The notes beneath the pieces were generated by a model. It was given only the letters and a program-made list of their open reading frames with translations, searched no databases and had not been told where the DNA came from. Below, piece by piece: positions 7,675-46,563 of a stretch of 64,000 bases of DNA. The position numbers and the translations under genes are program-made. Source of the stretch: Candidatus Pacebacteria bacterium CG2_30_36_39 (GTDB taxonomy: Bacteria; Patescibacteriota; Microgenomatia; UBA1400; PJMF01). The stretch spans positions 239,538 to 303,537 of the forward strand of contig MNZB01000004.1 in NCBI GenBank assembly GCA_001873435.1, read 5' to 3'. The first letter of the stretch is position 1. Every line of letters begins with the position of its first letter.

Positions 7675-7702
7675 GCCTAGACTGTATCAAACCTCAAGCA
7701 AA

Positions 7703-8461
7703 ATGCATAGTCCTGATTTACTCAAGATGCAGTATAATAAAAATATGCCTGAAATCTTTAATGCTAGCCAGGCCCAGGAAGACAAAATAATGTCATCTCC
7801 ATCTATTCCCACCACAACACCTGAAAAAGAAAAAGAAATTATTAGTAAAAAAGCTAGGAATGTTGATGACTATTCCGAAATCATGAGACGTGAAAAACCA
7901 AGCAGCAACTGTCTTCAATCTTTCTTACCAAAACCAATTAAATTTGGTTTTGATACCCAATTAAATCAAGAAAAAGTTATTTTAGTTTTAAGACAACATC
8001 CAATTACTTTATTGAAAAAAATAGGAATTATTATTTTTGGCATAATATTTCCACTGTTCTTTTCTCAATTCCCTTTTACAGATTTCTTTCCTACTTCATA
8101 CCAATTCGCTATGATTGTCGGTTGGTACACCATCACCATGGGCTTGGCTTTGGAAACTTTTTTAGTTTGGTTTTTTAGCGTCTATATTATTACAGATGAA
8201 AGAATTATCGATGTAGATTTTATTTCTTTACTATTTAAAGATGTTTCTTCTGCAAAACTAGATGATATTCAAGATATTAGCTCGAAAACTGGTGGCTTGT
8301 TGGCTACAGTAGTAGATTATGGAACAGTTTATATTCAAACTGCTGGAGAAAAAACAGAAATTGAATTTGAAAATGTACCTCAACCAGCAAAAGTAGCAGC
8401 TATTCTAAATGAATTACTCCTAGAAGAAGAACGAGAGAAAATTGAAGGGAGGGTAAGTTAA
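7703..8461 (+). CDS. bPH_2/DUF304-domain membrane protein (YdbT-like).
   Basis: Two TM helices followed by a PH-like '...DERIIDVDFISLLFKDVSSAKLDDIQDISSKTGGLLATVVDYGTVYIQTAGEKTEIEFENVPQP' block. The start is placed at the internal ATG 7703, because the track ORF start 7478 overlaps the divergent gene. ATG 7727 or 7745 are alternative starts. Confidence 0.5.
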   Translation: MHSPDLLKMQYNKNMPEIFNASQAQEDKIMSSPSIPTTTPEKEKEIISKKARNVDDYSEIMRREKPSSNCLQSFLPKPIKFGFDTQLNQEKVILVLRQHPITLLKKIGIIIFGIIFPLFFSQFPFTDFFPTSYQFAMIVGWYTITMGLALETFLVWFFSVYIITDERIIDVDFISLLFKDVSSAKLDDIQDISSKTGGLLATVVDYGTVYIQTAGEKTEIEFENVPQPAKVAAILNELLLEEEREKIEGRVS

Positions 8462-11240: not shown

Positions 11241-11358
11241 TTCTGGCCTCGACCTATCTTCGCGTCCCAACGAGGGGATACTATTGTCGGCGCTGAGGCG
11301 TTTCAAGACTCTGTTCGGGATGGGAAGAGTTGGTTCCACCTCGCTCCGGAGACCAGAA
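11241..11358 (-). rRNA. rrf: 5S rRNA.
   Basis: The reverse complement reads '...GGUGGAACCACUCUUCCCAUCCCGAACAGAGUCUUGAAACGCCUCAGCGCCGACAAUAGUAUCCCC...'. This matches the conserved 5S loop B/C/helix III-IV consensus, and the terminal helix UCUGGUCUC/GAGGCCAGA closes it. Confidence 0.85.
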
Positions 11359-11467
11359 TAAAACGCTTTTTGTTAATTTTAGGTTATGTTCCCTAAAAGG
11401 TGAAGAGAAATTGTCATCTGCCAGTAAAAAATTGAGAATTCATTTTTAACGCATCTTTATATACTAA

Positions 11468-14378
<2,911 letters not shown>

Positions 14379-14584
14379 AATTAGCGAAATTTGCATTTTT
14401 TTATAAATTCTCGACGAATTTACTATTAGATGACATATCTCTTCACTTTTTAAAGAACAATTCTAAACAAGAAGCTTCCGCTCCTTGTTGTTCGCCCCGA
14501 GTAGTCAAGATTTCTCTCAAAAACCCATGAACGAATAACAAAAAGCCGATCTTAGTTATTCTTGTTTATGTTAATTTGCTTCTG

Positions 14585-14658
14585 TGGACCCTAAGGGGCT
14601 CGAACCCTTGGCCTCTACATTGCAAATGTAGCGCTCTAGCCAACTGAGCTAAGGGCCC
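14585..14658 (-). tRNA. tRNA-Ala (anticodon UGC), immediately upstream of the 23S rRNA.
   Basis: The reverse complement is GGGCCCTTAGCTCAGTTGGCTAGAGCGCTACATTTGCAATGTAGAGGCCAAGGGTTCGAGCCCCTTAGGGTCCA. It forms a cloverleaf, the anticodon loop is TTTGCAA, and the Ala-identity G3:U70 pair is present. Confidence 0.9.
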
Positions 14659-17166: not shown

Positions 17167-17778
17167 ATGACACCAATTAGCACTCACTACTTCTCTCTTT
17201 CAAAGAGAACATTTGATTTTTCTCTAGCTATTTTCCTTGCTATCTTCTTATCTCCATTACTATTATTAATTGCTATTACTATTTTAATAAGTTCTGGTAT
17301 GCCAATCATTTTTACTCAGAAAAGAACTGGAAAAGATGGTAAAACCTTTACCATTTACAAATTTAGAACAATGAAAAAAAATGCTTCACTACTCAAGCAT
17401 AAATATCTAGAATTCAATGAAGCACCTTCTCCAATGTTTAAAATTCACAATGACCCAAGATTTGTTGGCATTGGAAAATTATTATCTCAAAGCGGTTTTG
17501 ATGAACTCCCTCAATTAGTTAACATCATTAAAGGTGAAATGAGCTTTGTTGGACCAAGACCATTGCCTGTTCAAGAAGCCGCCTCCCTTAATCAAAACTG
17601 GAAATCTTTTAGAGAACAAGTAAAACCAGGTGTTTTTTCAGAATGGACTCTTTCAAGCAATAGACATTCAACTCTAAAAAAATGGCAAGAACTAGAAGAA
17701 AAAACTCTATCGTATAGTAATTTAAAAAATGATTTAGAAGTCATGATTAAAGTCATGCTCAAACAACACAATCCCTAA
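17167..17778 (+). CDS. Initiating polyprenyl-phosphate hexose-1-phosphate transferase (bacterial sugar transferase, PglC/WbaP C-terminal type).
   Basis: One TM helix followed by 'PIIFTQKRTGKDGKTFTIYKFRTM...FDELPQLVNIIKGEMSFVGPRPL'. Confidence 0.85.
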   Translation: MTPISTHYFSLSKRTFDFSLAIFLAIFLSPLLLLIAITILISSGMPIIFTQKRTGKDGKTFTIYKFRTMKKNASLLKHKYLEFNEAPSPMFKIHNDPRFVGIGKLLSQSGFDELPQLVNIIKGEMSFVGPRPLPVQEAASLNQNWKSFREQVKPGVFSEWTLSSNRHSTLKKWQELEEKTLSYSNLKNDLEVMIKVMLKQHNP

Positions 17779-17830
17779 ATAAATTTAATCCTAAAACTTA
17801 GGATTAGCAGATGATGCTATTATTAAAATA

Positions 17831-20422
17831 GTGTCAAATATCCTTAAGTTTTTAGCTGGTTCAGCATTATTAATAATTTATTTATTATTAATCTTCTTAT
17901 TAGGTGAATCATTTCTGCAATATGTTCTTTTTGGGATGGGGGCGATCATTTGCCTTTATTTATCATTTGCTCTGGGAAATTGGTCTTCATTAATTAAATA
18001 CCCCTTAATTCTGGCTGGCTGGATATTATTTGTTTTGAGCTTGGCAATAAGCACTATTTCTACTGTGAATCTACCGCTAACTTTGAGTTATTTAGCATTT
18101 TATGGATTAAGCTATTTAACATTTATTACGATTTTGGTTTTACCTAAAAAAATAAAAAGTATTTGGGTAATTTTCACAACATTACTAGCAATTTTTATAG
18201 TTACTCTAATTAGTATCTTTTTTCAGTTATTTCCAGAAATGGCCAAATCATTACCAACAATGAACTTGATTTATTCAACTTTTGGCCATAACCATTTAGC
18301 AGCCATACTATTACTAATTATTCCCATGAGCTGGTGGTTTGCCATCAATAAAAAACACGAGCTAAGTGAAGTTTTTCCAAATATTTTTTTTCAAATTGTT
18401 CCCTTTTTTTTCTCAATAGTTTTGCTTTTTAGCTTTGGAAGAATAGCTATTTTGTTGGGTTTATTTGAGTTTTTAATTATTAAATTTTTATTAAATAAAC
18501 AAAAAGTATCTCCAACAAAAATTATTAAAAATGAACTACGCCTATTACAAATCTTATTTTTCTCAATCTTAATTATTAAAATCATCTTCTCAGTAGTTGA
18601 AATATTTAATCCTGGCTATATATGTCCTATTCAAGAAAAAGAAAAGCAATTATGTAAATCTATTTCAAATGAAAGAAGACCGCTCTACTGGGATCAAGCC
18701 TGGAAAGTAATCAAGGAATACCCGCCAATTGGTTCTGGACCAGGTACTTTTAGTGTTTCTGGAGCTAAATACAGCCAAGCCCCTCTATATAGAACATCTT
18801 TTGCTCATAACGCTTTCCTAGAAAACTACAGCACTTTGGGAATTATCGGAGGTAGCATCTTCATATTTTTAATGTTTAACATGTTATTTAAAGTAAGTCG
18901 TGCAAAAGAAATAAAAATAAATTCAAAAGAAGAATTGATTAATGGCAGTAATAGTTGGCAATTTTTCAGTTTAATTTCTTTATGTGCAATTTATGTTGAT
19001 GTTCTATTTGATTTTGATTGGAATTTTTCAGGAATCTTCATTTTAACGCTCATCTTAATTGCAACCATGCTTCGAGAAACTACTATAAATAAAGATCTAA
19101 ATTTTCTTAACAAAAGAAAGAGTGAAAAAATAGCTAAAGCAACTAAAAACATATTTGTTTTTATTAGTTTTTGTTTAATCACCCTATCTGGAACATATTT
19201 GGTTGTTGAATTTAAAATCAAACAACAAAAAACCAATGAAGCATTTGAGTTTTTCCCCTACTTCCACTGGCATCGTAAAATTTTTGAAACAGAACTATCT
19301 TCAGAAAACTACCCCAAACTCTTAAGTATTTATAAAAATTATCCAGAACACTACATATTTTTAATCAGCAAAGAAATTGATCCAAACAAAACAGCTCTCC
19401 TAAAAAAAAGACTGGGAGAACTGAGTCCTTGGGACAAAATTAAGGAAAATAACATTGAATACTATTTAAATGAAAATCAATATGACTTGGCTCAACAAGA
19501 ACTAGAAACAATTCATGAACTTTATCAAAAAAGCTTAAAAACAAGCGATGACTGGATTTTTAGCTATAGCGATATAAAAAGACTATCTCAACAGACCCTT
19601 AGATTTGCAGACAAAATATGGCTTCAAAACCCCTTATTAGCCGCTGATTTTTACACTAAAGCTCAAAAAATAGATTCATGGACTTGGCAAGAAAATAGCT
19701 TGGGTATTTTAAATGATAAATTTGACCAATATTTTCAACAAAGATTAGAATTTATGAGAAATTTTCCAAATGAAAAATATGATTATTTAGGCACTAATCG
19801 TAACACTTATGCCAAAAAATATTTATTGGCTTTAAATGAATTTTTAAAATCACAAGAAAACCCTCAAAATATTCATAATGATCTAAACAATATTTTAAAT
19901 ATGGCTAACTGGCTTTCTGTTTATGCTTGGGCTGACCTAAATGAAATTTACCAATTAAAAATAACCCAAACCTTACAAACAAACAAAATAAATGAAGTTA
20001 GTAGTTTAATTTCAGAATGGAAAAAAACCTCAGAAACAATCCAAAAATACAACAAAGATCTTTCGTGGGATTATAAACTAAAAATTAACTTAGTTAAAAA
20101 ACTGCAAAAAAAAGCTACTGAATTATTAAACAATAATAAAGCTGAAAATCTTACAGATGAAATAAGAAGCCAAGTCATGGATTTGGTTTCTTTAATGAAC
20201 CAAGTTTTACCAGAAAATTATTGGGTCATAGTACAGCCAGGAAATCTATATACCTATTTTGGCCAAATTGAGACAGCAAAAAAGGCTTTTCAATATTGTT
20301 TAGACAACTATTATGATCCAGGAAAACATGTAGATTGTGAGAATGGATTATTAAATTTAAATCAAGAAATACCAAATAAGAACCGCTATTTTGAAGTATC
20401 TAAAACCATCCTCAGCCAATAA
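17831..20422 (+). CDS. Wzy_C-family membrane protein (O-antigen ligase / O-oligosaccharyltransferase-like) with a ~450-aa C-terminal alpha-helical soluble domain.
   Basis: About 10 N-terminal TM helices. The motif '...RTSFAHNAFLENYSTLGIIGG' is the Wzy_C signature. The long K/N/E-rich C-terminus is probably TPR-like. Confidence 0.7.
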   Translation: MSNILKFLAGSALLIIYLLLIFLLGESFLQYVLFGMGAIICLYLSFALGNWSSLIKYPLILAGWILFVLSLAISTISTVNLPLTLSYLAFYGLSYLTFITILVLPKKIKSIWVIFTTLLAIFIVTLISIFFQLFPEMAKSLPTMNLIYSTFGHNHLAAILLLIIPMSWWFAINKKHELSEVFPNIFFQIVPFFFSIVLLFSFGRIAILLGLFEFLIIKFLLNKQKVSPTKIIKNELRLLQILFFSILIIKIIFSVVEIFNPGYICPIQEKEKQLCKSISNERRPLYWDQAWKVIKEYPPIGSGPGTFSVSGAKYSQAPLYRTSFAHNAFLENYSTLGIIGGSIFIFLMFNMLFKVSRAKEIKINSKEELINGSNSWQFFSLISLCAIYVDVLFDFDWNFSGIFILTLILIATMLRETTINKDLNFLNKRKSEKIAKATKNIFVFISFCLITLSGTYLVVEFKIKQQKTNEAFEFFPYFHWHRKIFETELSSENYPKLLSIYKNYPEHYIFLISKEIDPNKTALLKKRLGELSPWDKIKENNIEYYLNENQYDLAQQELETIHELYQKSLKTSDDWIFSYSDIKRLSQQTLRFADKIWLQNPLLAADFYTKAQKIDSWTWQENSLGILNDKFDQYFQQRLEFMRNFPNEKYDYLGTNRNTYAKKYLLALNEFLKSQENPQNIHNDLNNILNMANWLSVYAWADLNEIYQLKITQTLQTNKINEVSSLISEWKKTSETIQKYNKDLSWDYKLKINLVKKLQKKATELLNNNKAENLTDEIRSQVMDLVSLMNQVLPENYWVIVQPGNLYTYFGQIETAKKAFQYCLDNYYDPGKHVDCENGLLNLNQEIPNKNRYFEVSKTILSQ

Positions 20423-20486
20423 TAAATCTTAAATAATAAAAAACTATGGCTAGTGGTTATTTTTCTATGATAAGATCGAGCCTATT

Positions 20487-21464
20487 ATGAATACTAAGAA
20501 ACGAGCAAGGGTTTTAGTTGCAGGCGGTGGTGGCTTTATTGGTGGTCACTTAATTAAATATCTTAAAAAACAAGGTTATGAAAAAATCAGAGCTGTAGAC
20601 ATCAAACCACTGTCTGAGTGGCAACAGCTAGATTCTAAAGTTGAAAACATTTCCCTAGATCTTAAAGATAAAAACAACTGTATCGAAGCAGTTAAAGGAA
20701 TTGATGAAGTTTATAACCTAGCAGCTGATATGGGTGGCATTGGTTTTATCGAAAATAATAAGGCCAGTTGTATGCTGAGCGTTTTAATAAACACTCACTT
20801 ATTATTAGCAGCCAAAAATAACAAAGTTAAACGTTTTTTCTTTGCTTCATCAGCTTGTGTTTATGCTGCTGACAAACAAACAGAAACTCAAAATAAGGGC
20901 TTAAAAGAAAGCGATGCTTATCCAGCCATGGCTGAAGATGGTTACGGTTGGGAAAAGTTATTCAGTGAAAGAATGTGTCGCCACTTTGCAGAAGATTTCG
21001 GCTTAAAAACAAGAGTAGCTAGATTTCATAATGTTTATGGCCCATTCGGTGATTACAACACCGGCCGTGAAAAAGCTCCTGCTGCTTTAACTAGAAAAAT
21101 CATTGCTGCTGAAAAAACAAAGAAAAAAGAAATTGAAATTTGGGGAGATGGTGAGCAAACTAGAAGCTTTATGTATATTGATGACTGTGTAAAAGGCATC
21201 GACCTAATTATGCACAGTAATATTAAGGAGCCAGTCAACTTGGGTAGTGAAGAAATGGTTTCCATTAATCAATTGGTAGAGATATTAGAAAAAATTGCCA
21301 AAATAACTGTCAAAAGAAAGTATTTGCTTAACGCACCAAAAGGAGTTAGAGGTAGGAGTAGTGATAATACTCTGCTTAGAAAATATCTGAGTTGGGAACC
21401 ATCTATTTCTCTCAAAAGAGGTATGAGCAAACTATATCAGTGGATCAAACAAGTAGAAAAGTAA
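20487..21464 (+). CDS. GDP-mannose 3,5-epimerase (GME; NAD-dependent epimerase/dehydratase family).
   Basis: Near-identical blocks to plant and bacterial GME: 'AGGGGFIGGHL', 'YNLAADMGGIGFIENN', 'KRFFFASSACVYAADKQTETQNKGLKESDAYPA...GYGWEKL', 'RFHNVYGPFGDYNTGREKAPAA', 'EIWGDGEQTRSF.YIDDCV', 'EPVNLGSEEMVSIN', 'KGVRGRSSDN'. Confidence 0.8.
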   Translation: MNTKKRARVLVAGGGGFIGGHLIKYLKKQGYEKIRAVDIKPLSEWQQLDSKVENISLDLKDKNNCIEAVKGIDEVYNLAADMGGIGFIENNKASCMLSVLINTHLLLAAKNNKVKRFFFASSACVYAADKQTETQNKGLKESDAYPAMAEDGYGWEKLFSERMCRHFAEDFGLKTRVARFHNVYGPFGDYNTGREKAPAALTRKIIAAEKTKKKEIEIWGDGEQTRSFMYIDDCVKGIDLIMHSNIKEPVNLGSEEMVSINQLVEILEKIAKITVKRKYLLNAPKGVRGRSSDNTLLRKYLSWEPSISLKRGMSKLYQWIKQVEK

Positions 21465-21517
21465 TCTTATTGACAGACCATAACGCATAGATTAGTTTAA
21501 CATAGAGAAATATCATT

Positions 21518-21805
21518 ATGATGCATTTTATTAATCAACTTAAAAACCAATTAATGGATTTTTTTCAAAGCAAAAAAACCCTAATGAAATATTTAAAAAA
21601 AATTAACTTTTATTTTAAAAAATTTCAAACAATAGTGAACTTTCTTATTTCCTTTATAAGCTTACTATTCACTTATATTGTTGGCATTGGAATTACTAGC
21701 TTAGTTGCAAAGATAGTGGGCAAAAAATTTCTTGGCAAAAAAGCCACTGATTCTCAATGGGTAGCGGTAGATTATTCAGATAAATTTAATCAGAAAATGT
21801 CCTAA
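21518..21805 (+). CDS. Small membrane protein (hypothetical).
   Basis: 95 aa with one TM helix (IVNFLISFISLLFTYIVGIGITSLVA). Its stop is 2 nt before the carbamoyltransferase start. Confidence 0.3.
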   Translation: MMHFINQLKNQLMDFFQSKKTLMKYLKKINFYFKKFQTIVNFLISFISLLFTYIVGIGITSLVAKIVGKKFLGKKATDSQWVAVDYSDKFNQKMS

Positions 21806-21807
21806 AA

Positions 21808-23538
21808 ATGAAAACACTAGGTATTTCAGCTTTTTACCATGATTCAGCAGTTTGTTTAATAATTGATGGAAAAATCATTGCGGCGGCTGCAGAAGAACGT
21901 TTTACTAGAATAAAACATGATAATAATTTTCCCCATCGAGCCATTAAATACTGCTTGGAAGAAGCAAACATATCTATTAATGATTTAGATGCTATTGCTT
22001 TCTACGAAAAGCCAATCTGGAAATTTGAAAGACTGCTCAGTCAGCATCTCGAGTACTTTCCCCTTAGCATTAAGGTCTTTTTAGAAAACACCGGTTCTTG
22101 GCTGAATCAAAAACTAAATGTAGAAAACATTGTAAAAAAAGAACTCAAATACAATGGCAAAATATTTTTCAGTCCTCATCACCTTTCGCATGCTGCCAGT
22201 GCCTATTATCTTTCAGATTTTGAAGATTCAGTAATTGTTACGGTTGATGGAGTTGGAGAATGGGCCACTACTACTGTTGGTAGAGCAACTAAAAACAAAA
22301 TTAAAATAGATAAAGAAATCAGATTTCCTCACTCTCTTGGTTTGCTTTATAGCACCTTAACTGGTTATTTAGGTTTCAAAGTTAATGATGCTGAATATAA
22401 AGTCATGGGCCTTGCTGCTTATGGTGACTACAAACCATTTTTAAAGAAATTCGACCAATTAATCAAAATGCATAAAGACGGAAGTTATTCCTTAAATATG
22501 GAATATTTTGATTATGGTTGGGCAGAACATATGCCATCAGCAAAAATGGCTAAATTATTTGGTTATCCTATTAGAAAACCAGAATCAAAAATAGAACGAC
22601 ATCACGAAAACATTGCTGCTGCCTTGCAATACAAAACAGAACAAGTAGTTTTTAATTTACTTAAAAAAGCTCACCAAGAATACAAATGCGATAATCTTTG
22701 CATGGCTGGCGGTGTAGCTTTAAACTCTGTCTTAAATGGCAAAATATTGACAAATACTCCATTTAAAAAAATCTATATTCCCCCGGCTCCCAGCGATGCT
22801 GGTGGAGCCATGGGAGCTGCTTTATATCTAGATCAAAACCCAGAATTAATTGGTTTAAAGAAAAACACCAAAACAACCCATTTGGCCTTAGCTAAAAACT
22901 TCACTCCATACTTGGGTCCAGCTTATAGCCAAGATAGAATTCTAAAGGCTATTAAAGATTCCAAGCTAAAATATAAGTTATATAAAAGTGAAAAAGATTT
23001 ATTAGACTTTATTAGTGATTTAATCATTGATAAAAAAGTAATTGGCTGGTATCAAGGCAGGATGGAATGGGGGCCAAGAGCTTTGGGTAGTCGTAGTATT
23101 CTTGCTGCTGCCACCAGTAAAGACATGAAAGATATTTTGAATTTAAAAGTTAAAAAAAGAGAATTATTTAGACCTTTTGCCCCAGTTATTTTGGAAAAAT
23201 ATGCCCACGAATTCTTTGAAGCAGATAAGCCATTGCCTCCACTAGCCAAATACATGTTGCTTGTATATCAATTTACCAAAAAGGGAGCCAAAGACATTCC
23301 TTCTGTGGTTCATGTCAACGGTAGTGGAAGATTACAAAGCATCAATTGCAAAGAAAATCCTCTTTATTATGATCTTATTGATACTTATAGAAAAAAGACT
23401 GGAGTACCAGTTATCATCAATACTTCTTTTAATGTTCGCGGAGAACCAATTATCGATTCTCCAGAAAGCGCTATTAACTGCTTTTTAACAACAGAAATAG
23501 ATTGTTTAGTGATGGATCGCTATATAGTATTAAAGTAG
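21808..23538 (+). CDS. Carbamoyltransferase (NodU/CmcH family).
   Basis: 'MKTLGISAFYHDSAVCLI.DGKIIAAAAEERFTRIKHD..FP' N-terminal Kae1-like ASKHA fold plus a C-terminal YrdC-like domain, 576 aa. Confidence 0.85.
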   Translation: MKTLGISAFYHDSAVCLIIDGKIIAAAAEERFTRIKHDNNFPHRAIKYCLEEANISINDLDAIAFYEKPIWKFERLLSQHLEYFPLSIKVFLENTGSWLNQKLNVENIVKKELKYNGKIFFSPHHLSHAASAYYLSDFEDSVIVTVDGVGEWATTTVGRATKNKIKIDKEIRFPHSLGLLYSTLTGYLGFKVNDAEYKVMGLAAYGDYKPFLKKFDQLIKMHKDGSYSLNMEYFDYGWAEHMPSAKMAKLFGYPIRKPESKIERHHENIAAALQYKTEQVVFNLLKKAHQEYKCDNLCMAGGVALNSVLNGKILTNTPFKKIYIPPAPSDAGGAMGAALYLDQNPELIGLKKNTKTTHLALAKNFTPYLGPAYSQDRILKAIKDSKLKYKLYKSEKDLLDFISDLIIDKKVIGWYQGRMEWGPRALGSRSILAAATSKDMKDILNLKVKKRELFRPFAPVILEKYAHEFFEADKPLPPLAKYMLLVYQFTKKGAKDIPSVVHVNGSGRLQSINCKENPLYYDLIDTYRKKTGVPVIINTSFNVRGEPIIDSPESAINCFLTTEIDCLVMDRYIVLK

Positions 23539-23550
23539 AATAAAAATAAT

Positions 23551-23694
23551 ATGTTTAAAGAATTAATTAAATATTTATGGAAAAATAAATCTTGGTGGAT
23601 TATCCCACCAGTAATTATTTTAATTATCTTTGGCGCATTAGTGGTTTTTTCTCAAACATCTCCACTTAGTCCATTTATCTACGTCTTATTTTAA
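23551..23694 (+). CDS. 47-aa membrane protein of the small family that typically follows carbamoyltransferases (DUF5989-like).
   Basis: ATG at 23551, 13 nt after the carbamoyltransferase stop. The sequence is MFKELIKYLWKNKSWWIIPPVIILIIFGALVVFSQTSPLSPFIYVLF. It is too short for the ORF track. Confidence 0.55.
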   Translation: MFKELIKYLWKNKSWWIIPPVIILIIFGALVVFSQTSPLSPFIYVLF

Positions 23695-24917
23695 AGTTTT
23701 TCAATAGCTTTAATCACCATTGGAGTTAGTTTTTTGGCAACTATTTCATAACCTTTATCTGACGTATGAATGTGATCAATATAAATATCTTCTGAAAATT
23801 CATTATAAAAATCTGTGCCATCAATAATTGTTTTATCCAAAAATAATTTGGATTTAAGCAAATAGTCATAAGCAGAAGAAAAATACTTCTCTGCCCCAGG
23901 AAAAACCCCCACAAATCTTTCCTTAATTCTTATTTCTTCAGTTGAAAAAGATTTATTACCCCAAAAAATAGTTGGTTGAAAAACAAATAATACAGGAGTT
24001 TTTGTTTTACTCGCTATTGCGTTAATATAGTCAACACTTTCTTCATATTTTTTTGCTGAATCAATTGCAACATTCCCTTGTTCTAAAATATTCTCAGCTT
24101 TATTAAGATTTGATTTTTGCAAATGATATCTAAAAAAACCAAGTAATTCACTCTTATTTAAACGATTTTTAACTTCTTCTTCTATTAATGACCAAGCAGC
24201 ACCCAATTTTTTCTTGGTCAAAGCATTCTCATTAATACCAGGCAAATTTGACCCTACTTTATAAATAAAACCAGCATAAAGATCATTAAAACCACCATAG
24301 TGAATAACTAAATCTGGTTGGTAGGCACTAATTTCTTTCCACATCAATAATTCTTGAGTAGAAACATAGCCTGGCTGGCCTAGATTTAGCACTTCTATTT
24401 TATTGGCTACTAAATTTATTTTTTTCTCTGCCAACTTGTTATTTAGCTCTTTCTCTAGATAGCCAATAATAGTTTTATCATCAGCCGTTGCTCCCTGACC
24501 CCAAACTGAAGAACCGCCCAATATGATGATTCTAAAAGTTCCAGCTTGTTTTTCTCCCCAGTCATTACCCCTATAGCCTAATGAGTTGGTAGAAACGACT
24601 CCGTTGTCTTGATTTGGATCAGATGCCCACAACAAAAATGGCTTATATGAATATTTAATATTCTCATACTGTTTAGTAACAAAATCCTGTTCTTCCAAAC
24701 TAGAAAAAGTAGAAAAATATAAACGATCAACATTCTTCACTCGATGAATAAATCTTAGTGTTAACTCACCAGCAATTAAAAATAAAAAAACAATCAAACA
24801 AGAAATTAAAACTAGAAACAATTTATTTATTTTAAAAGCAAACTTATTATCAGCTTCTAATACTATTTTTTCTCTAGAATTAACAGATTCTTTTTTCTCA
24901 GACCTAACACTAAACAT
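23691..24917 (-). CDS. Membrane-anchored SGNH/GDSL-family hydrolase (possible glycan O-acetyl esterase/transferase).
   Basis: N-terminal TM helix. Block I 'IIILGGSSVWGQGA' contains the catalytic Ser. Block III is 'VIHYGGFNDL'. The late 'DHIHTSDKGYE' supplies the Asp/His. Confidence 0.55.
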   Translation of the reverse strand: MFSVRSEKKESVNSREKIVLEADNKFAFKINKLFLVLISCLIVFLFLIAGELTLRFIHRVKNVDRLYFSTFSSLEEQDFVTKQYENIKYSYKPFLLWASDPNQDNGVVSTNSLGYRGNDWGEKQAGTFRIIILGGSSVWGQGATADDKTIIGYLEKELNNKLAEKKINLVANKIEVLNLGQPGYVSTQELLMWKEISAYQPDLVIHYGGFNDLYAGFIYKVGSNLPGINENALTKKKLGAAWSLIEEEVKNRLNKSELLGFFRYHLQKSNLNKAENILEQGNVAIDSAKKYEESVDYINAIASKTKTPVLFVFQPTIFWGNKSFSTEEIRIKERFVGVFPGAEKYFSSAYDYLLKSKLFLDKTIIDGTDFYNEFSEDIYIDHIHTSDKGYEIVAKKLTPMVIKAIEKL

Positions 24918-24992: not shown

Positions 24993-26120
24993 ATGAAGAT
25001 AATAACAAGAATAAAACATTTTTTTAGAAATCTTCTTTTTGGAATATTTGCCTCTATCTTTACATCATTGCTTATTTTAGTTGCAATCAATCTTTTTCTT
25101 GAAAAAATATACCTTCGTAATAATTTACCCCAGCATGATTGGACGGTTTTATTTACTACTTATGATCCTAGGTATGTTTTTTGGCAAAACTGCCTTGATG
25201 AATTCTGTCCAGAAAAATTTGGACAAAATTATCCACTGGATAAAATAGGAATTTATACCAATAAATTTAATTCTGAAAAAAATAAAGAAGCCAATTCTTG
25301 TTTAAAAATTTTGTTCCTTGGAGATTCTTTTTCTTCTTCTCCATTCTCAGATCATAGTTATTCATATTATTTTGCAGATTCACTGGCAAAAAACTCTAGT
25401 TTTTGTGTAGAAACAATTAGCATTGCCTCTGGAGGAGCTGGAAATAGTCAAGAATTAGCAAGACTTGAAGATGTAATAGAACAAGCCAAACCGAATGCAG
25501 TAATATGGCAATTCTACTGGAATGATTTTTTCGACAACATTAGATTTTCTCTTTTTGAAATTAACAATGAAGAACTAATTAGAAAAAAAGCTTGGGATAG
25601 CTCAGCCTTTTGGTCTGGATACATTAATCAAAAAATTCATCTTCTTGAAGATTCAACCTTGGGAAAATTCATCTCTACTAAAATGTTTTATAACGATCTT
25701 TTTCATAGCCAACCAGCAGATGATCGAGATTTTGCAAAAGTTATTGAATATAACCAAAAATTTATTCCTTTGGCAATTAAAAGAGTAGAAAAATTGGGAG
25801 AAAAAAATAATTTCAAACTATTTACCACCCTATCTCCCATGGAATGTCAATTTAATACTAATTCAACCTGTGAAAAATGGGCTATTAATTTCCAAGATCA
25901 ATTGAGAAAAATACTTTCAGAAAACAATAATTATTTATCAATGGAAAAAGAATTTATAATAAACGATCAAGAAAAAACCATTGAAGAATCCCAAAACAAA
26001 GAAATTCTTTTTGCAGAAAATGATAAACTCACAACTAAGGGAATCAGACACTTATCAGATGATGGAGAAAAATATTTTGGTGGAATTTTATTGCAAAATT
26101 TCTTAAACAAAATTAGTTAA
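24993..26120 (+). CDS. Second SGNH-like hydrolase, transcribed divergently.
   Basis: N-terminal TM helix, then 'ILFLGDSFSSS' (GDS motif) and 'AVIWQFYWNDF'. Confidence 0.45.
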   Translation: MKIITRIKHFFRNLLFGIFASIFTSLLILVAINLFLEKIYLRNNLPQHDWTVLFTTYDPRYVFWQNCLDEFCPEKFGQNYPLDKIGIYTNKFNSEKNKEANSCLKILFLGDSFSSSPFSDHSYSYYFADSLAKNSSFCVETISIASGGAGNSQELARLEDVIEQAKPNAVIWQFYWNDFFDNIRFSLFEINNEELIRKKAWDSSAFWSGYINQKIHLLEDSTLGKFISTKMFYNDLFHSQPADDRDFAKVIEYNQKFIPLAIKRVEKLGEKNNFKLFTTLSPMECQFNTNSTCEKWAINFQDQLRKILSENNNYLSMEKEFIINDQEKTIEESQNKEILFAENDKLTTKGIRHLSDDGEKYFGGILLQNFLNKIS

Positions 26121-26125
26121 ACATA

Positions 26126-26857
26126 ATGAAAATAATTATAGATCAATTAAATTTTATAATTGGAAATTTTGATCAAGTAATAGTAGCCATTCAAAACAAA
26201 TTTAAAACCAGAGGCATTACGGTTTTACCCTGCTCTCTCAACGATCTCGCAACTAAAAAATTCAATCCAAATTACGAAATTTATTATCAAAACGTTGATG
26301 TTTGCACAACTGATAGTATGATTTTAACCAAATGGTTGAGTTATAAACTCGGCTTAAAAATAGAAAGAGTTTACGGGCCAGATCTTTTATTAGCATTATT
26401 CAAAAAAACAAATTTAGAACCTGGTAAGACATTTTTTTTAGGTGCTAATAAGCAAATGCTGGAACAACTAAAAAATAAACTAGCAATTAAAAATAACAAC
26501 CAATTTAACTTTATAACCTTATCAAAAACTGCTACTGAAAAAGAGGAGGAGCTGGTTTTAACAACAATAATAAAAGCAAAACCGAATTTTTTGTGGTTAG
26601 GAATTGGCTCTCCAAAACAAATAGAACTAGCCTACAAATTAAGAAAGCAATTACCCAAAACACATATTTTCTGCGTTGGGGCTGCTCTAGATTTTATTAG
26701 TGGTAACAAAAAACAAGCACCTATTTGGATGCAAAAAAATGGTCTCGAATGGCTATTTAGATTAATCTCCGAACCACAGAGACTATGGAATAGATATTTA
26801 ATCAGCATACCAAAATATATTTTTCTAAAATTAATAGAAAAACTCTTGTTAAAATAA
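26126..26857 (+). CDS. WecG/TagA/CpsF-family (GT26) glycosyltransferase.
   Basis: 'GPDLL..L......FFLGA', 'NFLWLGIGSPKQIELA', 'VGAALDFISGNKKQAPIWMQKNGLEWLFRL..EP.RLWNRYL'. Confidence 0.85.
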   Translation: MKIIIDQLNFIIGNFDQVIVAIQNKFKTRGITVLPCSLNDLATKKFNPNYEIYYQNVDVCTTDSMILTKWLSYKLGLKIERVYGPDLLLALFKKTNLEPGKTFFLGANKQMLEQLKNKLAIKNNNQFNFITLSKTATEKEEELVLTTIIKAKPNFLWLGIGSPKQIELAYKLRKQLPKTHIFCVGAALDFISGNKKQAPIWMQKNGLEWLFRLISEPQRLWNRYLISIPKYIFLKLIEKLLLK

Positions 26858-26862
26858 CAATT

Positions 26863-28026
26863 ATGAATGTCATTTTTTCTACTTATGAAACTAAAGAAAT
26901 AGGCGGCAGCTACCTTAGATCCCTCTCCCTAGCTCAGGGCTTGAGCAAGTTGGGCCATAAAGTAACCCTTTGGACTAGTGCAAAAACAATTTGCTTGAAA
27001 CCAAAAATATCATTTGAAGAAAATGTTAAAGTAATTGAATCTATTGGCATTTTTCCTTACAGATTTAGAAAAGGTGGATATGATCCACTAGATTTAGTCT
27101 TTCGCACTTTAGCTATTTTGTTCTCACCAGCTGAAATAATTCATAGCTTTAACCACCGTCCTACTGCATCAATACCTGGATTAATAAAATCTTTGTTTTC
27201 AAAAACAAAATGGTTTGTTGACTGGGCAGATCTATGGGGAAGAGGTGGAATTGCCGATCGAAGATATGGATTATTTAGCTTCATTACCTCAAGAGTAGAT
27301 CACTATTCTGAACAATTAATTATAAAATTAGCAAATTATGTAACTCCAATAAGTGATGACTTGGTTAGAAAAGCAAAAAATATTAGAAATTCTAATAAAA
27401 ATATATATTTTTTAGCTGTGGGCGCAAACATTGATCATATTTCTCCATTAAAAAAAGAAGTTGCTAGAAATAAATTAAAACTTTCTTTAAAAAATAAGAT
27501 TTTAGTCTATCTATACGTTGGCACCTATGATGAAATCTTATTAGCTCAGATGTTTATTGAATTGAGAAAAATAAGATCAGATGTTAGCTTACTTTTACTT
27601 GGCCCAAATATCCCAGATTTTTATCAAGAATTTAATAAAAATAAAGAGTATTTAAAAAACGTAATTCATCCAGGAATAGTTTCTAGAGAAATGTTAACTT
27701 GGTATTTGGCAGCTGGGGATATTATGATGATGCCTTTTGCTAATAAAGAAATTAATCTAGGAAAATTTCCCAATAAACTTGGAGATTATTTAGCCGCTGG
27801 AAGACCAATTTTAGGCAATCCAACTGGAGAAGTTAAAAAACTATTAGAAAAAGAAAATGTAGGAGTTCTTGCATCAGAAGAACCTAAAAAATTCGCTAAA
27901 GCAGCAGACAAATTACTTAATGATAAACAAAAACTATTGGTACTTGGAAAAAATGCTCGTAAAGCAGCTGAACTACTTTCTTGGAAGGCTGTCGCTCAAC
28001 AACTTGAAAGTTTTTACCTCAAATAA
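26863..28026 (+). CDS. GT4 (GT-B) glycosyltransferase.
   Basis: 387 aa. The C-terminal half has a GT1/GT4-type pattern (…ILLLGPNIP…DIMMMPF…GRPILGNPTGE…). Confidence 0.7.
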   Translation: MNVIFSTYETKEIGGSYLRSLSLAQGLSKLGHKVTLWTSAKTICLKPKISFEENVKVIESIGIFPYRFRKGGYDPLDLVFRTLAILFSPAEIIHSFNHRPTASIPGLIKSLFSKTKWFVDWADLWGRGGIADRRYGLFSFITSRVDHYSEQLIIKLANYVTPISDDLVRKAKNIRNSNKNIYFLAVGANIDHISPLKKEVARNKLKLSLKNKILVYLYVGTYDEILLAQMFIELRKIRSDVSLLLLGPNIPDFYQEFNKNKEYLKNVIHPGIVSREMLTWYLAAGDIMMMPFANKEINLGKFPNKLGDYLAAGRPILGNPTGEVKKLLEKENVGVLASEEPKKFAKAADKLLNDKQKLLVLGKNARKAAELLSWKAVAQQLESFYLK

Positions 28027-28839
28027 ATTTTTTCTAAACTGCCACTGAAGCTTATCTTGGTCATAATAAATACTTGGATTAATTTTTGTATGATTTGCTA
28101 ATTTTGCAATTTGCCTCCAAGCAATTTTACCAATCAAACTAATTTTTTCAGGAACCCAAGCGTTTATCTCTCGATAATACTTTTGATGGTTATCATTATT
28201 CTTACGATTTGGATTCAAACGATAAGAAGCCAAACAGGCCTCAACACAATAAAGTCTTTCATGCTTTGCAAAAGATTGCCACAACTTGAGATCCATCGAA
28301 TAAGGAACCTCCGCCAAACCTCCACCTGCTTTATTCCAAAGCGAACGACGCCAAAAAGTCCCCTCTTGCATCACAAAACCCATGAATTTTCTTGTGTACC
28401 AGCCTCTTTTAATAAAAGACTGAATATAGAATGGTGGTTGGGCTAAATAAAGTTGATAGCCTTGATCATTAATAGTAGATGGCAAACTAGTTAGCCAACT
28501 CACTTCTTTTAATTGGGCAAAAATACTTCCAACTAGCTGTAAAGCTCCTGGCCTTAAAATATCATCACTATTTAACCAAGCCATAACTTGTCCATTTGTT
28601 CTTGCAAAACCCTTATTAATGGCATGTGACTGCCCACGGTCGGCAACACTTTCCCAATGAGCCAAATATTTTTCATATTTCTTAATAATTTTTTTACTAC
28701 CATCGGTAGAACCACCATCAATAATCACATATTCTAAATTTGGGTAATTTTGATCAAGAATAGAACAAATGGTTTTTTCTAAAAATTCACCTTGATTGTA
28801 AGACGGAGTAACAATGGAAATTTTAGGAAGATTTTTCAT
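27973..28839 (-). CDS. GT2 glycosyltransferase.
   Basis: 'ISIVTPSYNQGEFLEKTICSILDQNYPNLEYVIIDGGSTDGS'. Confidence 0.8.
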   Translation of the reverse strand: MKNLPKISIVTPSYNQGEFLEKTICSILDQNYPNLEYVIIDGGSTDGSKKIIKKYEKYLAHWESVADRGQSHAINKGFARTNGQVMAWLNSDDILRPGALQLVGSIFAQLKEVSWLTSLPSTINDQGYQLYLAQPPFYIQSFIKRGWYTRKFMGFVMQEGTFWRRSLWNKAGGGLAEVPYSMDLKLWQSFAKHERLYCVEACLASYRLNPNRKNNDNHQKYYREINAWVPEKISLIGKIAWRQIAKLANHTKINPSIYYDQDKLQWQFRKNLFEVKTFKLLSDSLPRK

Positions 28840-29729
28840 TAATTTTCAACAACTGGTTCTACAAATGAAATTTTACCAATGACAGAAATATTATCAAAAA
28901 TTAAATATAATTTACTATCAACCAATAGTGGAGATTCTTTACGATAATAGTAATTGCCATTAATTTCTTCTCCAAGAATTTCTAAAGTTAAAGTAGTTTT
29001 AGTTCTTTCTGGATCTACTACAGAATAATAATTACCAGCTTCTACAAAACTTCTTTTACCTGGTTGAGTTTTAATTGAAACAATTTTCACTAATTCCGAT
29101 CCTTTGGCATCAGCAATGTTCATTCCTTCTTTTAATGCCCTAAGAACATGGTTTTCAATTCCTTCGATTAAAGCATTGCTGTTATTTTGAAAGTCTGGAG
29201 ATACTCCTTGAGCGTCGAGTTCCAAAGTAACTAAAAACTTTTTAAATATCTTTTCTTTAGTACCCAAGTCAACTATTTCTCCAGCTAAAAGCAAGTCTCC
29301 AACTTTAAAAGATCGGATGTCATGAATTAACAATGGACTACCATTAAAAACATACTGGCCAGTAACATTATTTTTTAGGGCCCTAAGACGAACAGTTACA
29401 TAAACATCATGATAAATAGATGGACCTGGATACTGATATACATCAACTATTTCAATTAATGATCTTCCCAATCCATCAACTTGTTTTTTCCCAGTTGTCA
29501 CCTGCTCAACATACCAAGATCTTGGTTTATTTTGTCCAAATGAATATTCTGGCCCCTCATAACTAAGTAAGCGAACTGTTAAATCAAGATATTCAACTTT
29601 ACGACTTAAAAAGAAATAAGCAGAACCCATTAAAAAAACCACTAAAAACACCCCCACGAAATCTAGGGCACTGGCATTTCTAAGCTTTTTTAAAAATATA
29701 GATATTAGTTTATGAAGTTGTTTTTTCAT
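28839..29729 (-). CDS. Membrane-anchored hypothetical protein in the glycan locus.
   Basis: 296 aa with one N-terminal TM helix. It is start/stop-coupled to its neighbours. Confidence 0.4.
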   Translation of the reverse strand: MKKQLHKLISIFLKKLRNASALDFVGVFLVVFLMGSAYFFLSRKVEYLDLTVRLLSYEGPEYSFGQNKPRSWYVEQVTTGKKQVDGLGRSLIEIVDVYQYPGPSIYHDVYVTVRLRALKNNVTGQYVFNGSPLLIHDIRSFKVGDLLLAGEIVDLGTKEKIFKKFLVTLELDAQGVSPDFQNNSNALIEGIENHVLRALKEGMNIADAKGSELVKIVSIKTQPGKRSFVEAGNYYSVVDPERTKTTLTLEILGEEINGNYYYRKESPLLVDSKLYLIFDNISVIGKISFVEPVVEN

Positions 29730-31212
29730 AATGTAGAACTAATAGAATAGCCAAAATATTAAAGCTAAAAAGATTTATAAATGGATGAAACAACATCATA
29801 ATAAATCCCGCAGCGATACTTGAGTATATCATGGCTAAAGCAAGCGGACTAAACAAAATTTTCCTAACTTTTTTCAATAATAAACCAAAGAATACCAAAC
29901 AAAAAACTCCAGCTACCAAACCTCTTTCAACTAAAAACAAAATAAAACCATTATGAATTTCCTCTGGAAAATATTTCATTATCCCCTCTGGAAAGAGCTC
30001 AAAAGAAACTGGAATAAACATTCCAGAACCAAAACCCAAAAATGGAGATTTTCCTAAAACACCAAAAGCTTCTTGTGTTTGAGAAATTCTAGTCGTTACC
30101 CCGCCAGTAGGAGAAAAAGAAGAAAAACTATTGAATAAACGATAAGACATTTTGAATATTAATACTGAACTAGCAAATAAAAATATTAATTTTATCCAAG
30201 GGTTTATTTTTTTAACTTCAACATTAATTTTTTTAATAAAGCTAAAAATATTTTTATCTCTAAAATAATAAAAAGAATAAAATCCGCAACTAACAATAAA
30301 AGCCAAGAAAGCTGATCTGCTTAATGAAATAAATGTTACAAAAACAAGAATTCCAATGATTAATAAATAAATAATTTTATTAGCTTCTTTAGAAAATACA
30401 TTCTTTAAATAATTAACAAAAACCAGAGCTCCCAAAGCCATCATGAGCTGTTCGTTGGCCAAACTATTAGCATGTGGGTGCCAACCGAATGGCCTAAATC
30501 CTCCCCCCTGTTCATCTGAGCCAAGCCCAAAAACTGGAATTATCTCAGCTTTTTCTATCATTAAACCTAATGCTGAATTTTTAATCAATTGAGCAAAGAC
30601 AAGAAAATTTTCAAAAGACAAAGTAACTAATAAAATTAAAATTAAAGTAGCTAAAACCTTGTTTCTTTGCACTTTTAAATTAGCAGTAGCTATTAGTAAA
30701 TACATAAACCAAATAAGAATTAAACTTTCTCTAAGAGAAAAAATCGTGCTTAAAAAAGGAAAAGGAGCTATCCAAAATGATGAAAAAATAAAAATAAACG
30801 GCAAAATTAACAATATTTTTTCATAAGTTAATAACTTTATTCTCGATTTAAAATAGTAAAATGGTAGTAATAATCCAGCAGCAAATAAAATTACCAAATG
30901 AGGTGAAAGAATGAACAACAATTGCCTTCCCTCCCAATATTGAATTGAACCTATGTCAGCAGCAGACATAACAGGAAAAGCATAAATTTGCCCAACTGTT
31001 AATGAAAGAAAAATTGGAACACTATAGATAACTGCCCTGGGAAAAGAGTAATAAAAAGCCAAAAAAATAAAGTAAAAAAAACTAACTACAAAATATATTT
31101 TTACTGATGGAATTAAAAATACCATGGCACAAAATAAAAAAGTAGCAATCACTGCCATCTGGTCAGTGGGTTTGATGAGGCTTGCTAGAAATTGTTTAAT
31201 TTTTTGCAACAT
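29710..31212 (-). CDS. Wzy-like polymerase / O-antigen-ligase-family polytopic membrane protein.
   Basis: 500 aa with more than 10 TM helices. Large loop with 'SRSAFLAFIVSCGFYSF'. Confidence 0.55.
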   Translation of the reverse strand: MLQKIKQFLASLIKPTDQMAVIATFLFCAMVFLIPSVKIYFVVSFFYFIFLAFYYSFPRAVIYSVPIFLSLTVGQIYAFPVMSAADIGSIQYWEGRQLLFILSPHLVILFAAGLLLPFYYFKSRIKLLTYEKILLILPFIFIFSSFWIAPFPFLSTIFSLRESLILIWFMYLLIATANLKVQRNKVLATLILILLVTLSFENFLVFAQLIKNSALGLMIEKAEIIPVFGLGSDEQGGGFRPFGWHPHANSLANEQLMMALGALVFVNYLKNVFSKEANKIIYLLIIGILVFVTFISLSRSAFLAFIVSCGFYSFYYFRDKNIFSFIKKINVEVKKINPWIKLIFLFASSVLIFKMSYRLFNSFSSFSPTGGVTTRISQTQEAFGVLGKSPFLGFGSGMFIPVSFELFPEGIMKYFPEEIHNGFILFLVERGLVAGVFCLVFFGLLLKKVRKILFSPLALAMIYSSIAAGFIMMLFHPFINLFSFNILAILLVLHYEKTTS

Positions 31213-32107
31213 AACCTAAGACATAAAAACGTTCAAAAACTCTAATTAGAACTATAGTTAACATTTTTGTAAACAAGCCACCATTGATATAAGGACTATA
31301 TTGATCAAAATCTTTGGAAAAATGTTTAATTAATCTAATTAACCATAAAATAAATATTTTGTCTTTGAGATTGACAAAATCATTGTTTAATTGCCATTTG
31401 CCTTTTAGAAAATGAATTAATTTTCCTCTAGCAAAGGCTCTATTAATAAACCTAAAAAATCTACCTGTTTCTTCATGATAAAGTTTCATTTCCTGGCAGT
31501 AGCTTCCTAAACAATTAAATTTTGCTAACTGCAATCCCATATCAAAATCTGCTATGTCATAAAACCCTATTTGGCAATTTTCATCAAATTTAATTTTTTT
31601 CTTTTTAAGTTCAGATATATCTAAAATTACATTTTTAGTATCAAAAACTTCTTTAGAACTTCTTGGAGATTTCTTAAAACCTTCAATTCTCCAATATGTA
31701 TCTCTAGAAAACTGAGCATTGGCAAAAATATTATTAGTATTTAATAAAAGAGAATTACCTAAAACAAAAACATCTTTTTTAGTTGAAATTATTCTATAGC
31801 CTTCTCTTAACCACTGTTTTGTTAGGACACAATCATCATCTATGAAAGCTAAATATTTAGTTTTTGCCTTACCAATAGCTAGATTTCTACAACCAGGAAC
31901 ATTTTTTTTGCAAAAAAAATAGCTAATATTCAAATCACTAAAAGCAGAATCTTTAATTACATCTTTTGCTGAAAAGTTTTCATCATTATCAATAACTATA
32001 ACTTCCAAGGGTTTAACAACCTGCTTCGTAACACTTGATAAGCAACGGCTCAATTCAATAGGCCTATTTTTTGTAACTATAGCCAACGAAATGTCTCTGT
32101 CCAACAT
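31196..32107 (-). CDS. GT2 glycosyltransferase.
   Basis: 'LAIVTKNRPIELSRCLSSVTKQVVKPLEVIVIDNDE' and 'FIDDDC'. Confidence 0.75.
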   Translation of the reverse strand: MLDRDISLAIVTKNRPIELSRCLSSVTKQVVKPLEVIVIDNDENFSAKDVIKDSAFSDLNISYFFCKKNVPGCRNLAIGKAKTKYLAFIDDDCVLTKQWLREGYRIISTKKDVFVLGNSLLLNTNNIFANAQFSRDTYWRIEGFKKSPRSSKEVFDTKNVILDISELKKKKIKFDENCQIGFYDIADFDMGLQLAKFNCLGSYCQEMKLYHEETGRFFRFINRAFARGKLIHFLKGKWQLNNDFVNLKDKIFILWLIRLIKHFSKDFDQYSPYINGGLFTKMLTIVLIRVFERFYVLGYVAKN

Positions 32108-37372: not shown

Positions 37373-37377
37373 AACAA

Positions 37378-41813: not shown

Positions 41814-41835
41814 ATTATTGATTAATCTTATTTAA

Positions 41836-42561: not shown

Positions 42562-42563
42562 AA

Positions 42564-46374: not shown

Positions 46375-46449
46375 ACAAACTATTCTCTAGAAATTGATTA
46401 AAACCAGGTTATAATAAGAAATCTTATTGAAAGTATTTAATAGGAAAAT

Positions 46450-46522: not shown

Positions 46523-46563
46523 CCCAAAGTAATTTAAAAGACTATAATTTAAAACGAATAAAT

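Follow-up and report, generated by a model that had tools for sequence, protein, structure and literature searches.

A probable GDP-mannose 3,5-epimerase gene in a conserved glycan-assembly locus of Candidatus Pacebacteria

What does the SDR gene in the middle of a glycan locus of a Candidatus Pacebacteria bacterium encode: another NAD-dependent epimerase or dehydratase of a familiar kind, or an enzyme that makes L-hexose nucleotide sugars? The gene is located in a 64-kb stretch of DNA, the whole of which was analysed and which is called the window here. A bacterial 23S-5S rRNA pair without an adjacent 16S rRNA gene is also found in the window, which is consistent with a CPR/Patescibacteria genome. 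The initial annotation had read the gene as a GDP-mannose 3,5-epimerase (GME) of the plant type. The gene is intact, and its feature line is as follows.

20487-21464, + strand: GDP-mannose 3,5-epimerase (GM35E/GME) orthologue with an ATG start; 325 aa, stop codon included in the coordinates

The ORF has exactly the extent that had been proposed, and the three sequence blocks quoted in support of the plant-type reading are all present in the translation: VKRFFFASSACVYA corresponds to KRFF.ASSAC.Y, GREKAPAA is exact, and GVRGRSSDN corresponds to RGR.SDN. The protein bears the generic NCBI name 'NAD-dependent dehydratase', because the only Pfam families assigned to it are the broad Epimerase and GDP_Man_Dehyd families and because a GM35E model is absent from NCBIfam. 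What is new here is the specific re-annotation. The enzyme family was already known, and equivalent orthologues are annotated automatically by JGI, which names many of them GDP-D-mannose 3',5'-epimerase.

In a phmmer search against the PDB, the top matches were the plant GM35Es of Myrciaria dubia (8sg0) and Arabidopsis (2c59, 2c54, 2c5a, and 2c5e), with E-values of 5e-91 to 1e-89; the matches covered residues 5-324 and scored 304-308 bits. UDP-xylose synthase (UXS) came next at 105 bits, followed by GalE-like and Fcl proteins at 75-100 bits. Thus, the score drops by about 200 bits from the GM35Es to the UXS, GalE, and Fcl families. The NCBIfam models of related enzymes all fell far short of their cut-offs, with scores of 122 against 500 for GDP-L-fucose synthase (Fcl; NF047922), 89 against 365 for RmlB, and 83 against 262.3 for GalE (TIGR01179). 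A pairwise MAFFT alignment with the Arabidopsis enzyme (AtGME), which the initial annotation had proposed as a check, gave 146 identical residues in 313 (46.6%) with the catalytic residues kept. The blocks around the active site are nearly identical between the two proteins (AADMGGxGFI, ASSACxY, GYGxEKL, RFHNxYGP, GREKAPAA, WGDGxQTRSF, and GVRGRxSDN). In general, the identity of the Pacebacteria GME to the nearest enzymes with a biochemical characterisation is about 45-50%.

The residues that define GM35E as against GalE and GDP-L-fucose synthase (GMER) are known from the literature (PMC8787198). They are the triad S143/Y174/K178, the acid/base pair C145/K217, R306, which acidifies the Cys, R243, which binds the diphosphate, and the conserved N203. 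GMER has a His base instead and a Lys as the Cys acidifier (PMC8787198). These positions were mapped onto the Pacebacteria protein through the pairwise alignment (313 columns) with an Arabidopsis sequence whose residues 28-341 were checked against the 2c59 alignment from the PDB search. It was found that all eight diagnostic residues are kept. The triad is S122, Y153, and K157; the acid/base pair is C124 and K196; the Cys-acidifying Arg is R290, inside GVRGRSSDN; R226 corresponds to the diphosphate-binding R243 and N182 to N203. In the GxxGxxG motif for NAD+, G13, G16, and G19 align with G34, G37, and A40 of AtGME. All of the 120 closest 90%-identity clusters show the diagnostic signature without variation.

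Could the protein still be a generic enzyme, that is, a UDP-glucose 4-epimerase, a UDP-xylose synthase, a dTDP-glucose 4,6-dehydratase, or a GDP-L-fucose synthase? The broad Pfam families, the generic NCBI name, and the missing NCBIfam model would all permit it, but these families reach at most 105 bits against 308 for GM35E and lie far under the NCBIfam cut-offs. Moreover, GalE and UXS have no Cys/Lys pair, and Fcl/GMER has His and Lys where the Pacebacteria protein has K196 and R290 (PMC8787198). Taken one by one, membership in the GDP-L-fucose synthases is ruled out by the 122-bit score and by K196/R290 instead of His/Lys, membership in GalE by the 83-bit score and the extra Cys/Lys pair, and assignment to UXS or RmlB by scores far under the cut-offs and the wrong catalytic residues. 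Judged from the sequence, a generic SDR of another specificity is effectively refuted in silico, and I give it almost no chance.

The predicted fold points in the same direction. An AlphaFold2 model built from 40 homologues (database sequences) had a mean pLDDT of 96.5 and a pTM of 0.94. The model has the extended-SDR Rossmann fold, with a TM score of 0.93 to 2c54/2c59. The best 14 PDB matches in a Foldseek search were all GM35E chains (TM 0.93, rmsd 1.2-1.5 Å, 44-46% identity), while SDR epimerases of other families came next at about 25% identity. Thus, the claim that the protein is a GME-type enzyme and not merely a generic SDR held up on the gap between 304-308 and 105 bits, the eight residues, and the fold, the activity itself being predicted. 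The best matches were clearly neither UDP-glucose 4-epimerases nor dTDP-sugar enzymes, findings that the initial annotation had named, together with a lack of the Cys and Lys, as grounds for dropping its reading. I conclude that the product of the gene is very probably a GDP-mannose 3,5-epimerase (EC 5.1.3.18), which belongs to the extended SDRs and binds NAD+ tightly.

If the mechanism is like that of the enzymes from Arabidopsis and Methylacidiphilum, Y153, K157, and S122 would oxidise C4 of GDP-alpha-D-mannose. The acid/base pair C124/K196 would then invert C5 and C3 through ene-diol(ate) intermediates, with R290 holding the catalytic Cys as a thiolate, and the 4-keto group would be re-reduced last. 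GDP-D-mannose, GDP-beta-L-galactose, and GDP-beta-L-gulose would then be expected to stand in equilibrium. With the Arabidopsis and Methylacidiphilum enzymes, the mannose, L-galactose, and L-gulose forms settle at roughly 80:15:5. As far as the sequence goes, the physiological product may be the L-galactose form, the L-gulose form, or both, and another GDP-hexose may be preferred.

Where would the GDP-mannose come from? The initial annotation had suggested looking for a manB/manC pair, and this search came back empty: no manA-, manB-, or manC-type gene was found in the window or within 10 kb past either end. Pfam scans covered essentially all window ORFs of at least 120 aa. The window was also negative in tblastn searches with the E. 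coli ManC and three Pfam-verified ManC sequences from related loci, and the sugar-1-phosphate nucleotidyltransferase motif G-x-G-T-R-L was absent from all six frames of the window, with none found in the 10-kb extensions. On the other hand, a ManC-type GDP-mannose pyrophosphorylase gene accompanies GME in three orthologous loci; it is directly adjacent in a Bryobacterales locus and beside or near GME in a Prolixibacteraceae locus and a Simkania locus. This supports GDP-mannose as the substrate of the GME family.

It may be argued that the same Cys/Lys SDR epimerisation acts here on another substrate or with another outcome, for example on GDP-glucose or GDP-heptose, or as a single 5- or 3-epimerisation giving mainly GDP-L-gulose or GDP-D-altrose. 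The bacterial clade to which the Pacebacteria GME belongs (at least 61% identity) is known from its sequences, and a review of GM35E raises the possibility of single 3- or 5-epimerases and promiscuous homologues (PMC8787198). More distant 50%-identity representatives include sub-groups in which K217 is replaced by H or N203 by T, G, or S, so the wider family has diversified, and no GDP-mannose-forming gene was found in the 84 kb around GME. However, the Pacebacteria protein is outside these sub-groups and has the canonical signature. Its near-identity to AtGME in the active-site blocks, its backbone fit of 1.3 Å to substrate-bound GM35E structures, and the ManC genes next to or near GME in the three orthologous loci also go against a different substrate. 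I regard this alternative as improbable, and a 3,5-epimerase acting on GDP-mannose is the preferred reading in the following.

What would such an enzyme do in this bacterium? The genes around GME are as follows.

17167-17778, + strand: initiating phosphoglycosyl transferase (PGT; Bac_transf, PF02397), the first gene of the co-directional run; assigned by Pfam and syntenic in relatives
17831-20422, + strand: Wzy_C-domain (O-antigen ligase/polymerase family) polytopic membrane protein of 863 aa with a long C-terminal extension; syntenic in relatives
21518-21805, + strand: small hydrophobic/membrane ORF of up to 95 aa between GME and the carbamoyltransferase gene; an ORF of 67-73 aa is kept in relatives
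21808-23538, + strand: NodU/CmcH-type carbamoyltransferase (Carbam_trans_N and Carbam_trans_C), by domain search
23592-23611, no strand assigned: bidirectional terminator-like hairpin after the carbamoyltransferase gene, by consensus scan only
23691-24917, - strand: SGNH/GDSL-family hydrolase or acyl-esterase-like protein, by domain search
24993-26120, + strand: second SGNH/GDSL-like protein, by domain search
26126-26857, + strand: WecG/TagA/CpsF-family (GT26) glycosyltransferase, by domain search
26863-28026, + strand: GT4 (group 1) glycosyltransferase; the orthologue in one of the compared loci is 69% identical
27973-28839, - strand: GT2 glycosyltransferase, by domain search
28839-29729, - strand: conserved protein of 296 aa without a family assignment; syntenic in relatives
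29710-31212, - strand: second Wzy_C-domain membrane protein, 500 aa, by domain search
31196-32107, - strand: GT2 glycosyltransferase, by domain search

Methyltransferases and a PLP decarboxylase are also encoded in the locus, beyond the second GT2 gene. For the small ORF and three unassigned neighbours, nothing credible was found in Pfam even at a relaxed threshold (E ≤ 0.1). The PGT, Wzy_C, and GME genes are separated by same-strand gaps of 52-64 bp, and the carbamoyltransferase gene starts 2 bp past the small hydrophobic ORF. Consensus matching found no terminator-like site in the + strand intergenic spaces from 17167 to 23538. The PGT, Wzy_C, GME, small ORF, and carbamoyltransferase genes are probably co-transcribed, and the hairpin is, by its sequence, the likely end of this transcription unit.

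The same gene set surrounds three GME orthologues in other Pacebacteria-like contigs; therefore, the locus is an inherited feature of the lineage. In the CPR relatives, carbamoyltransferase orthologues that are 67% identical adjoin GME. Thus, the earlier description of the surroundings as a bacterial glycan locus is borne out, the neighbours being glycan-assembly genes that are syntenic in related Pacebacteria. Separately, recent horizontal acquisition of GME was considered and is ruled out by the GC content of its region (32%, like that of its surroundings; about 33% for the window) and by the synteny across the Pacebacteria relatives.

Given the probable co-transcription and the glycosyltransferase and SGNH neighbours, the L-sugar therefore most likely becomes part of a cell-surface glycan in this Pacebacteria bacterium, one that is linked to undecaprenyl phosphate and possibly O-carbamoylated and O-acylated. 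A glycosyltransferase of the locus would draw the equilibrium forward by placing the L-sugar in the Und-P-linked glycan, which would then be carbamoylated or acylated and exported.

How common is this gene in bacteria? A word-indexed database search gave at least 8000 clusters at 90% identity (E ≤ 1e-20), the best 120 of which are 68-78% identical to the Pacebacteria GME, and an exhaustive search of 50%-identity representatives gave 1056 clusters (E ≤ 1e-30). I also searched GTDB, taking a single genome for each species, for two conserved peptide patterns and obtained at least 598 confirmed GME loci in these species-representative genomes. The best 80 of these loci are 61-70% identical to the Pacebacteria GME. 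They are distributed over Bacteroidota, Ignavibacteriota, Verrucomicrobiota, Patescibacteria, Acidobacteriota, Chlamydiota (Simkania), Alphaproteobacteria, Planctomycetota, Actinomycetota, Cyanobacteria, Gemmatimonadota, and Rhodothermota, and cultured carriers among them include Granulicella paludicola, Edaphobacter modestus, and Salinivenus lutea; Methylacidiphilum is not among the 80. In an NJ tree, the Pacebacteria GME falls within the canonical-signature group and clusters with other CPR sequences (71-77% identity). The sister of this CPR group is a Bacteroidota/Ignavibacteriota group, and the two are placed in a tight bacterial clade that spans many phyla. The Arabidopsis enzyme belongs to another clade with the canonical signature, and the sequences with variant signatures lie outside.

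The expectation that such an enzyme is uncommon in bacteria is correct in one sense only. Relative to other nucleotide-sugar enzymes it stands: in 2011, the bacterial homologues of GME numbered 43, compared with 766 for GMD and 1930 for UGE (PMC3220709). In 2019, 18 bacterial GMEs were annotated in UniProt (PMC6678494). Otherwise it does not stand, since the gene is present in at least 598 species genomes from more than 10 phyla. In summary, bacterial GME is widespread at low frequency.

The neighbours of GME in other bacteria were compared among the best 80 of the at least 598 loci. In 24 of these 80 loci, a GT26 (PF03808) gene was found within 8 kb of GME; in 20 of the 24, the two genes are immediate neighbours with the same orientation. 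These pairs occur in at least five phyla (Acidobacteriota, Verrucomicrobiota, Planctomycetota, Actinomycetota, and Gemmatimonadota), and seven of the neighbouring GT26 genes were verified by Pfam. The CPR loci have a carbamoyltransferase gene at most 8 kb from GME, and so do 5 of 80 others. All the CPR relatives examined likewise carry a GT26 gene, as does the window, and the recurrent adjacency elsewhere suggests that the GT26 protein of the window is a candidate user of the GME product.

It is tempting to go further. Here and in many other bacteria, GME and a dedicated GT26 subgroup may form a fixed pair in which GDP-L-galactose or GDP-L-gulose is the donor; in Pacebacteria, the pair would lead to a carbamoylated L-hexose surface polymer, possibly made from GDP-mannose for whose synthesis the reduced genome lacks the genes. 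I offer this only tentatively and consider it rather doubtful as a whole. To my knowledge, a GDP-L-galactose/GDP-L-gulose donor class is undescribed for GT26. A literature search found no paper that joins GT26 with GDP-L-galactose, and one on CPR and GME found nothing relevant. If true, the GME-GT26 partnership, together with the carbamoyltransferase in some lineages, would define bacterial L-galactosyl/L-gulosyl transfer.

A different arrangement was found in 12 of the same 80 loci, in Bacteroidales, Ignavibacteriota, and Prolixibacteraceae. There, a GME of about 70% identity is followed by a cytidylyltransferase-like protein of 378 aa and then by an alpha-L-fucosidase, an MFS transporter, and a RhaM mutarotase, without glycan-assembly genes. 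Does the enzyme run in reverse, from GDP-L-galactose to GDP-mannose, in the salvage or catabolism of L-galactose? The reaction is freely reversible (PMC6678494). However, none of these catabolic partners is encoded in the Pacebacteria window, where GME is inside a conserved glycan-assembly operon, and for this bacterium the reverse direction seems highly unlikely. Synthesis of an L-sugar nucleotide for a surface glycan is the better account of the locus.

The re-annotation raises a generic 'NAD-dependent dehydratase' to a specific, testable activity. It also predicts that the envelope of this ultra-small Pacebacteria bacterium, a member of the CPR, carries L-galactose and/or L-gulose, possibly carbamoylated. 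Knowledge of the surface chemistry of such uncultured episymbiont-like bacteria is very limited. That a CPR bacterium may make L-hexose nucleotide sugars is a modest surprise; otherwise, the identification is fairly ordinary, because close relatives of the gene exist in hundreds of bacterial species. GM35E has long been regarded as an enzyme of plants that is found in just a few bacteria, and the present survey adds highly conserved orthologues (61-77% identity) in many bacterial phyla. These orthologues can be drawn on as candidate biocatalysts for making L-sugar nucleotides, and the recurrent GME-GT26 adjacency is a lead to bacterial L-galactosyl or L-gulosyl transferases.

How does the Pacebacteria GME compare with known systems? 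Its closest mechanistic cousin is GDP-L-fucose synthase (GMER/Fcl/WcaG), which is likewise an SDR and uses a catalytic Cys in the 3,5-epimerisation of a GDP-sugar. GMER/Fcl uses its His base and Lys acidifier and also carries out a C4 reduction, while K196 and R290 occupy the corresponding roles in the Pacebacteria protein. As a gene set, the locus resembles the bleomycin cluster of Streptomyces verticillus, in which a GME-like epimerase, a carbamoyltransferase, and glycosyltransferase(s) are encoded together. In the bleomycin sugar cassette, BlmG is the GME-like enzyme, BlmC the GDP-mannose synthase, BlmE the glycosyltransferase, and BlmD the carbamoyltransferase, and the product of the cassette is L-gulose linked to 3-O-carbamoyl-mannose (PMC7017467; PMC6678494). 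In contrast, the bleomycin cluster serves a secondary metabolite and has its own GDP-mannose synthase in BlmC, while the Pacebacteria genes form a Wzy/PGT-type polymer locus with no such synthase in view.

The GMEs of Arabidopsis thaliana (Q93VR3; 2C59/2C54/2C5A/2C5E) and Myrciaria dubia (8SG0) share full-length homology (about 47% identity) and the same fold with the Pacebacteria GME. They also share the S/Y/K triad, the Cys/Lys pair, the acidifying Arg, the diphosphate Arg, and the 'orange wall' Asn. The Pacebacteria protein has neither the N-terminal extension (about 27 aa) nor the C-terminal one (about 35 aa) of the plant enzymes, and its GxxGxxG motif is GxxGxxA in Arabidopsis. The contexts differ as well, since plant GME serves ascorbate or cell-wall synthesis, whereas the Pacebacteria GME would serve surface-glycan assembly. 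The only biochemically characterised bacterial GM35E is that of Methylacidiphilum fumariolicum SolV (MfGM35E; I0K0X9) (PMC6678494). Its host is a verrucomicrobial methanotroph with LPS, while the host here is a monoderm-like CPR bacterium. MfGM35E is 50.5% identical to the plant enzyme (PMC6678494) and the Pacebacteria GME about 47%. The two proteins share the conserved Cys, Lys, and Arg, and MfGM35E is likewise a bacterial short-form enzyme whose gene adjoins glycosyltransferase and methyltransferase genes (PMC6678494).

Of 80 loci around orthologues of the GDP-mannose 3,5-epimerase (GME) gene (L008-L087, the best 80 of at least 598 species-representative loci), 20 have a gene for a glycosyltransferase of the WecG/TagA/CpsF family (GT26) as the immediate same-strand neighbour of GME, and within these best 80 the adjacency spans at least five phyla. 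The window has a GT26 gene as well. The GT26 proteins encoded next to GME are candidate GDP-L-Gal/L-Gul transferases.

GT26 genes: window and examples adjoining GME
26126-26857, window
7033-7956, locus L068
7105-7881, locus L016
7190-7993, locus L059
8948-9796, locus L022

In Bacteroidales, Ignavibacteriota, and Prolixibacteraceae genomes, a GME orthologue of about 70% identity is directly followed by a conserved gene for a 378-aa protein (L005 11016-12152, equivalent to L008 9010-10143; also L006, L009-L015, L017, and L048). It was found that this protein has a cytidylyltransferase-like domain (PF01467) at its N-terminus, while its C-terminal part ends in a GHMP-kinase-like GSGGGY motif. Next in the same loci come genes for a GH29 alpha-L-fucosidase, an MFS transporter, and a RhaM mutarotase. 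The whole set looks like an undescribed salvage or catabolic module for L-galactose/L-fucose, in which GME might work in the reverse direction. The module of the 378-aa protein, GH29, MFS, and RhaM genes is absent from the window.

The counterpart of the window's glycan locus in a Pacebacteria relative carries an RGP-family gene (PF03214; L001/L002 41-1024, minus strand). PF03214 is the plant UDP-arabinopyranose mutase/reversibly glycosylated polypeptide family, and the gene adds, besides GME, a further "plant-type" nucleotide-sugar enzyme in CPR.

Other genes of the window, and one tandem array beyond the ligase gene
11241-11357, minus, 5S rRNA
11464-14382, minus, 23S rRNA
14584-14658, minus, tRNA-Ala(UGC)
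36251-38972, plus, CBS-less IMPDH/GMP-reductase-family protein, then HAD hydrolase and nucleoside hydrolase
40200-43397, minus, B12-binding radical SAM protein adjoining an ABC-2 type (Wzm/Wzt-like) exporter pair
46449-46526, plus, tRNA-Ile, anticodon UAU
61808-63595, minus, ATP-dependent DNA ligase (archaeal/eukaryotic-type), at the window edge
L003 2563-4739, five small T4SS_pilin-family genes in tandem, just past the ligase at the window edge

The genes at 36251-38972 and 40200-43397 may be linked to guanine-nucleotide supply and glycan export, respectively. The block at 11241-14658 (minus strand) is an unlinked rRNA operon with no 16S rRNA gene upstream; a 211-aa ORF and the ribosomal protein S1 gene come in its place. 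On two contigs of Pacebacteria-like relatives (P0006 and P0011), the pilN/pilO-MurJ block adjoins the glycan locus directly, without the rRNA insertion. Bacteria usually decode AUA by a tRNA-Ile whose CAU anticodon is modified to lysidine, and the UAU anticodon is unusual.

Among representatives at 50% identity, I found altered catalytic signatures in more distant GME-like proteins of 41-50% identity (P0159, P0174, P0201, P0205, P0211, P0224, P0225, and others). In Arabidopsis numbering, K217 is replaced by His and N203 by Thr, Gly, or Ser, with Cys145 and Arg306 retained. These proteins form a clade of their own, and several representatives are fusions of 500-850 aa. The clade may have an activity other than that of GME; GDP-fucose synthase likewise has His at the position of K217.
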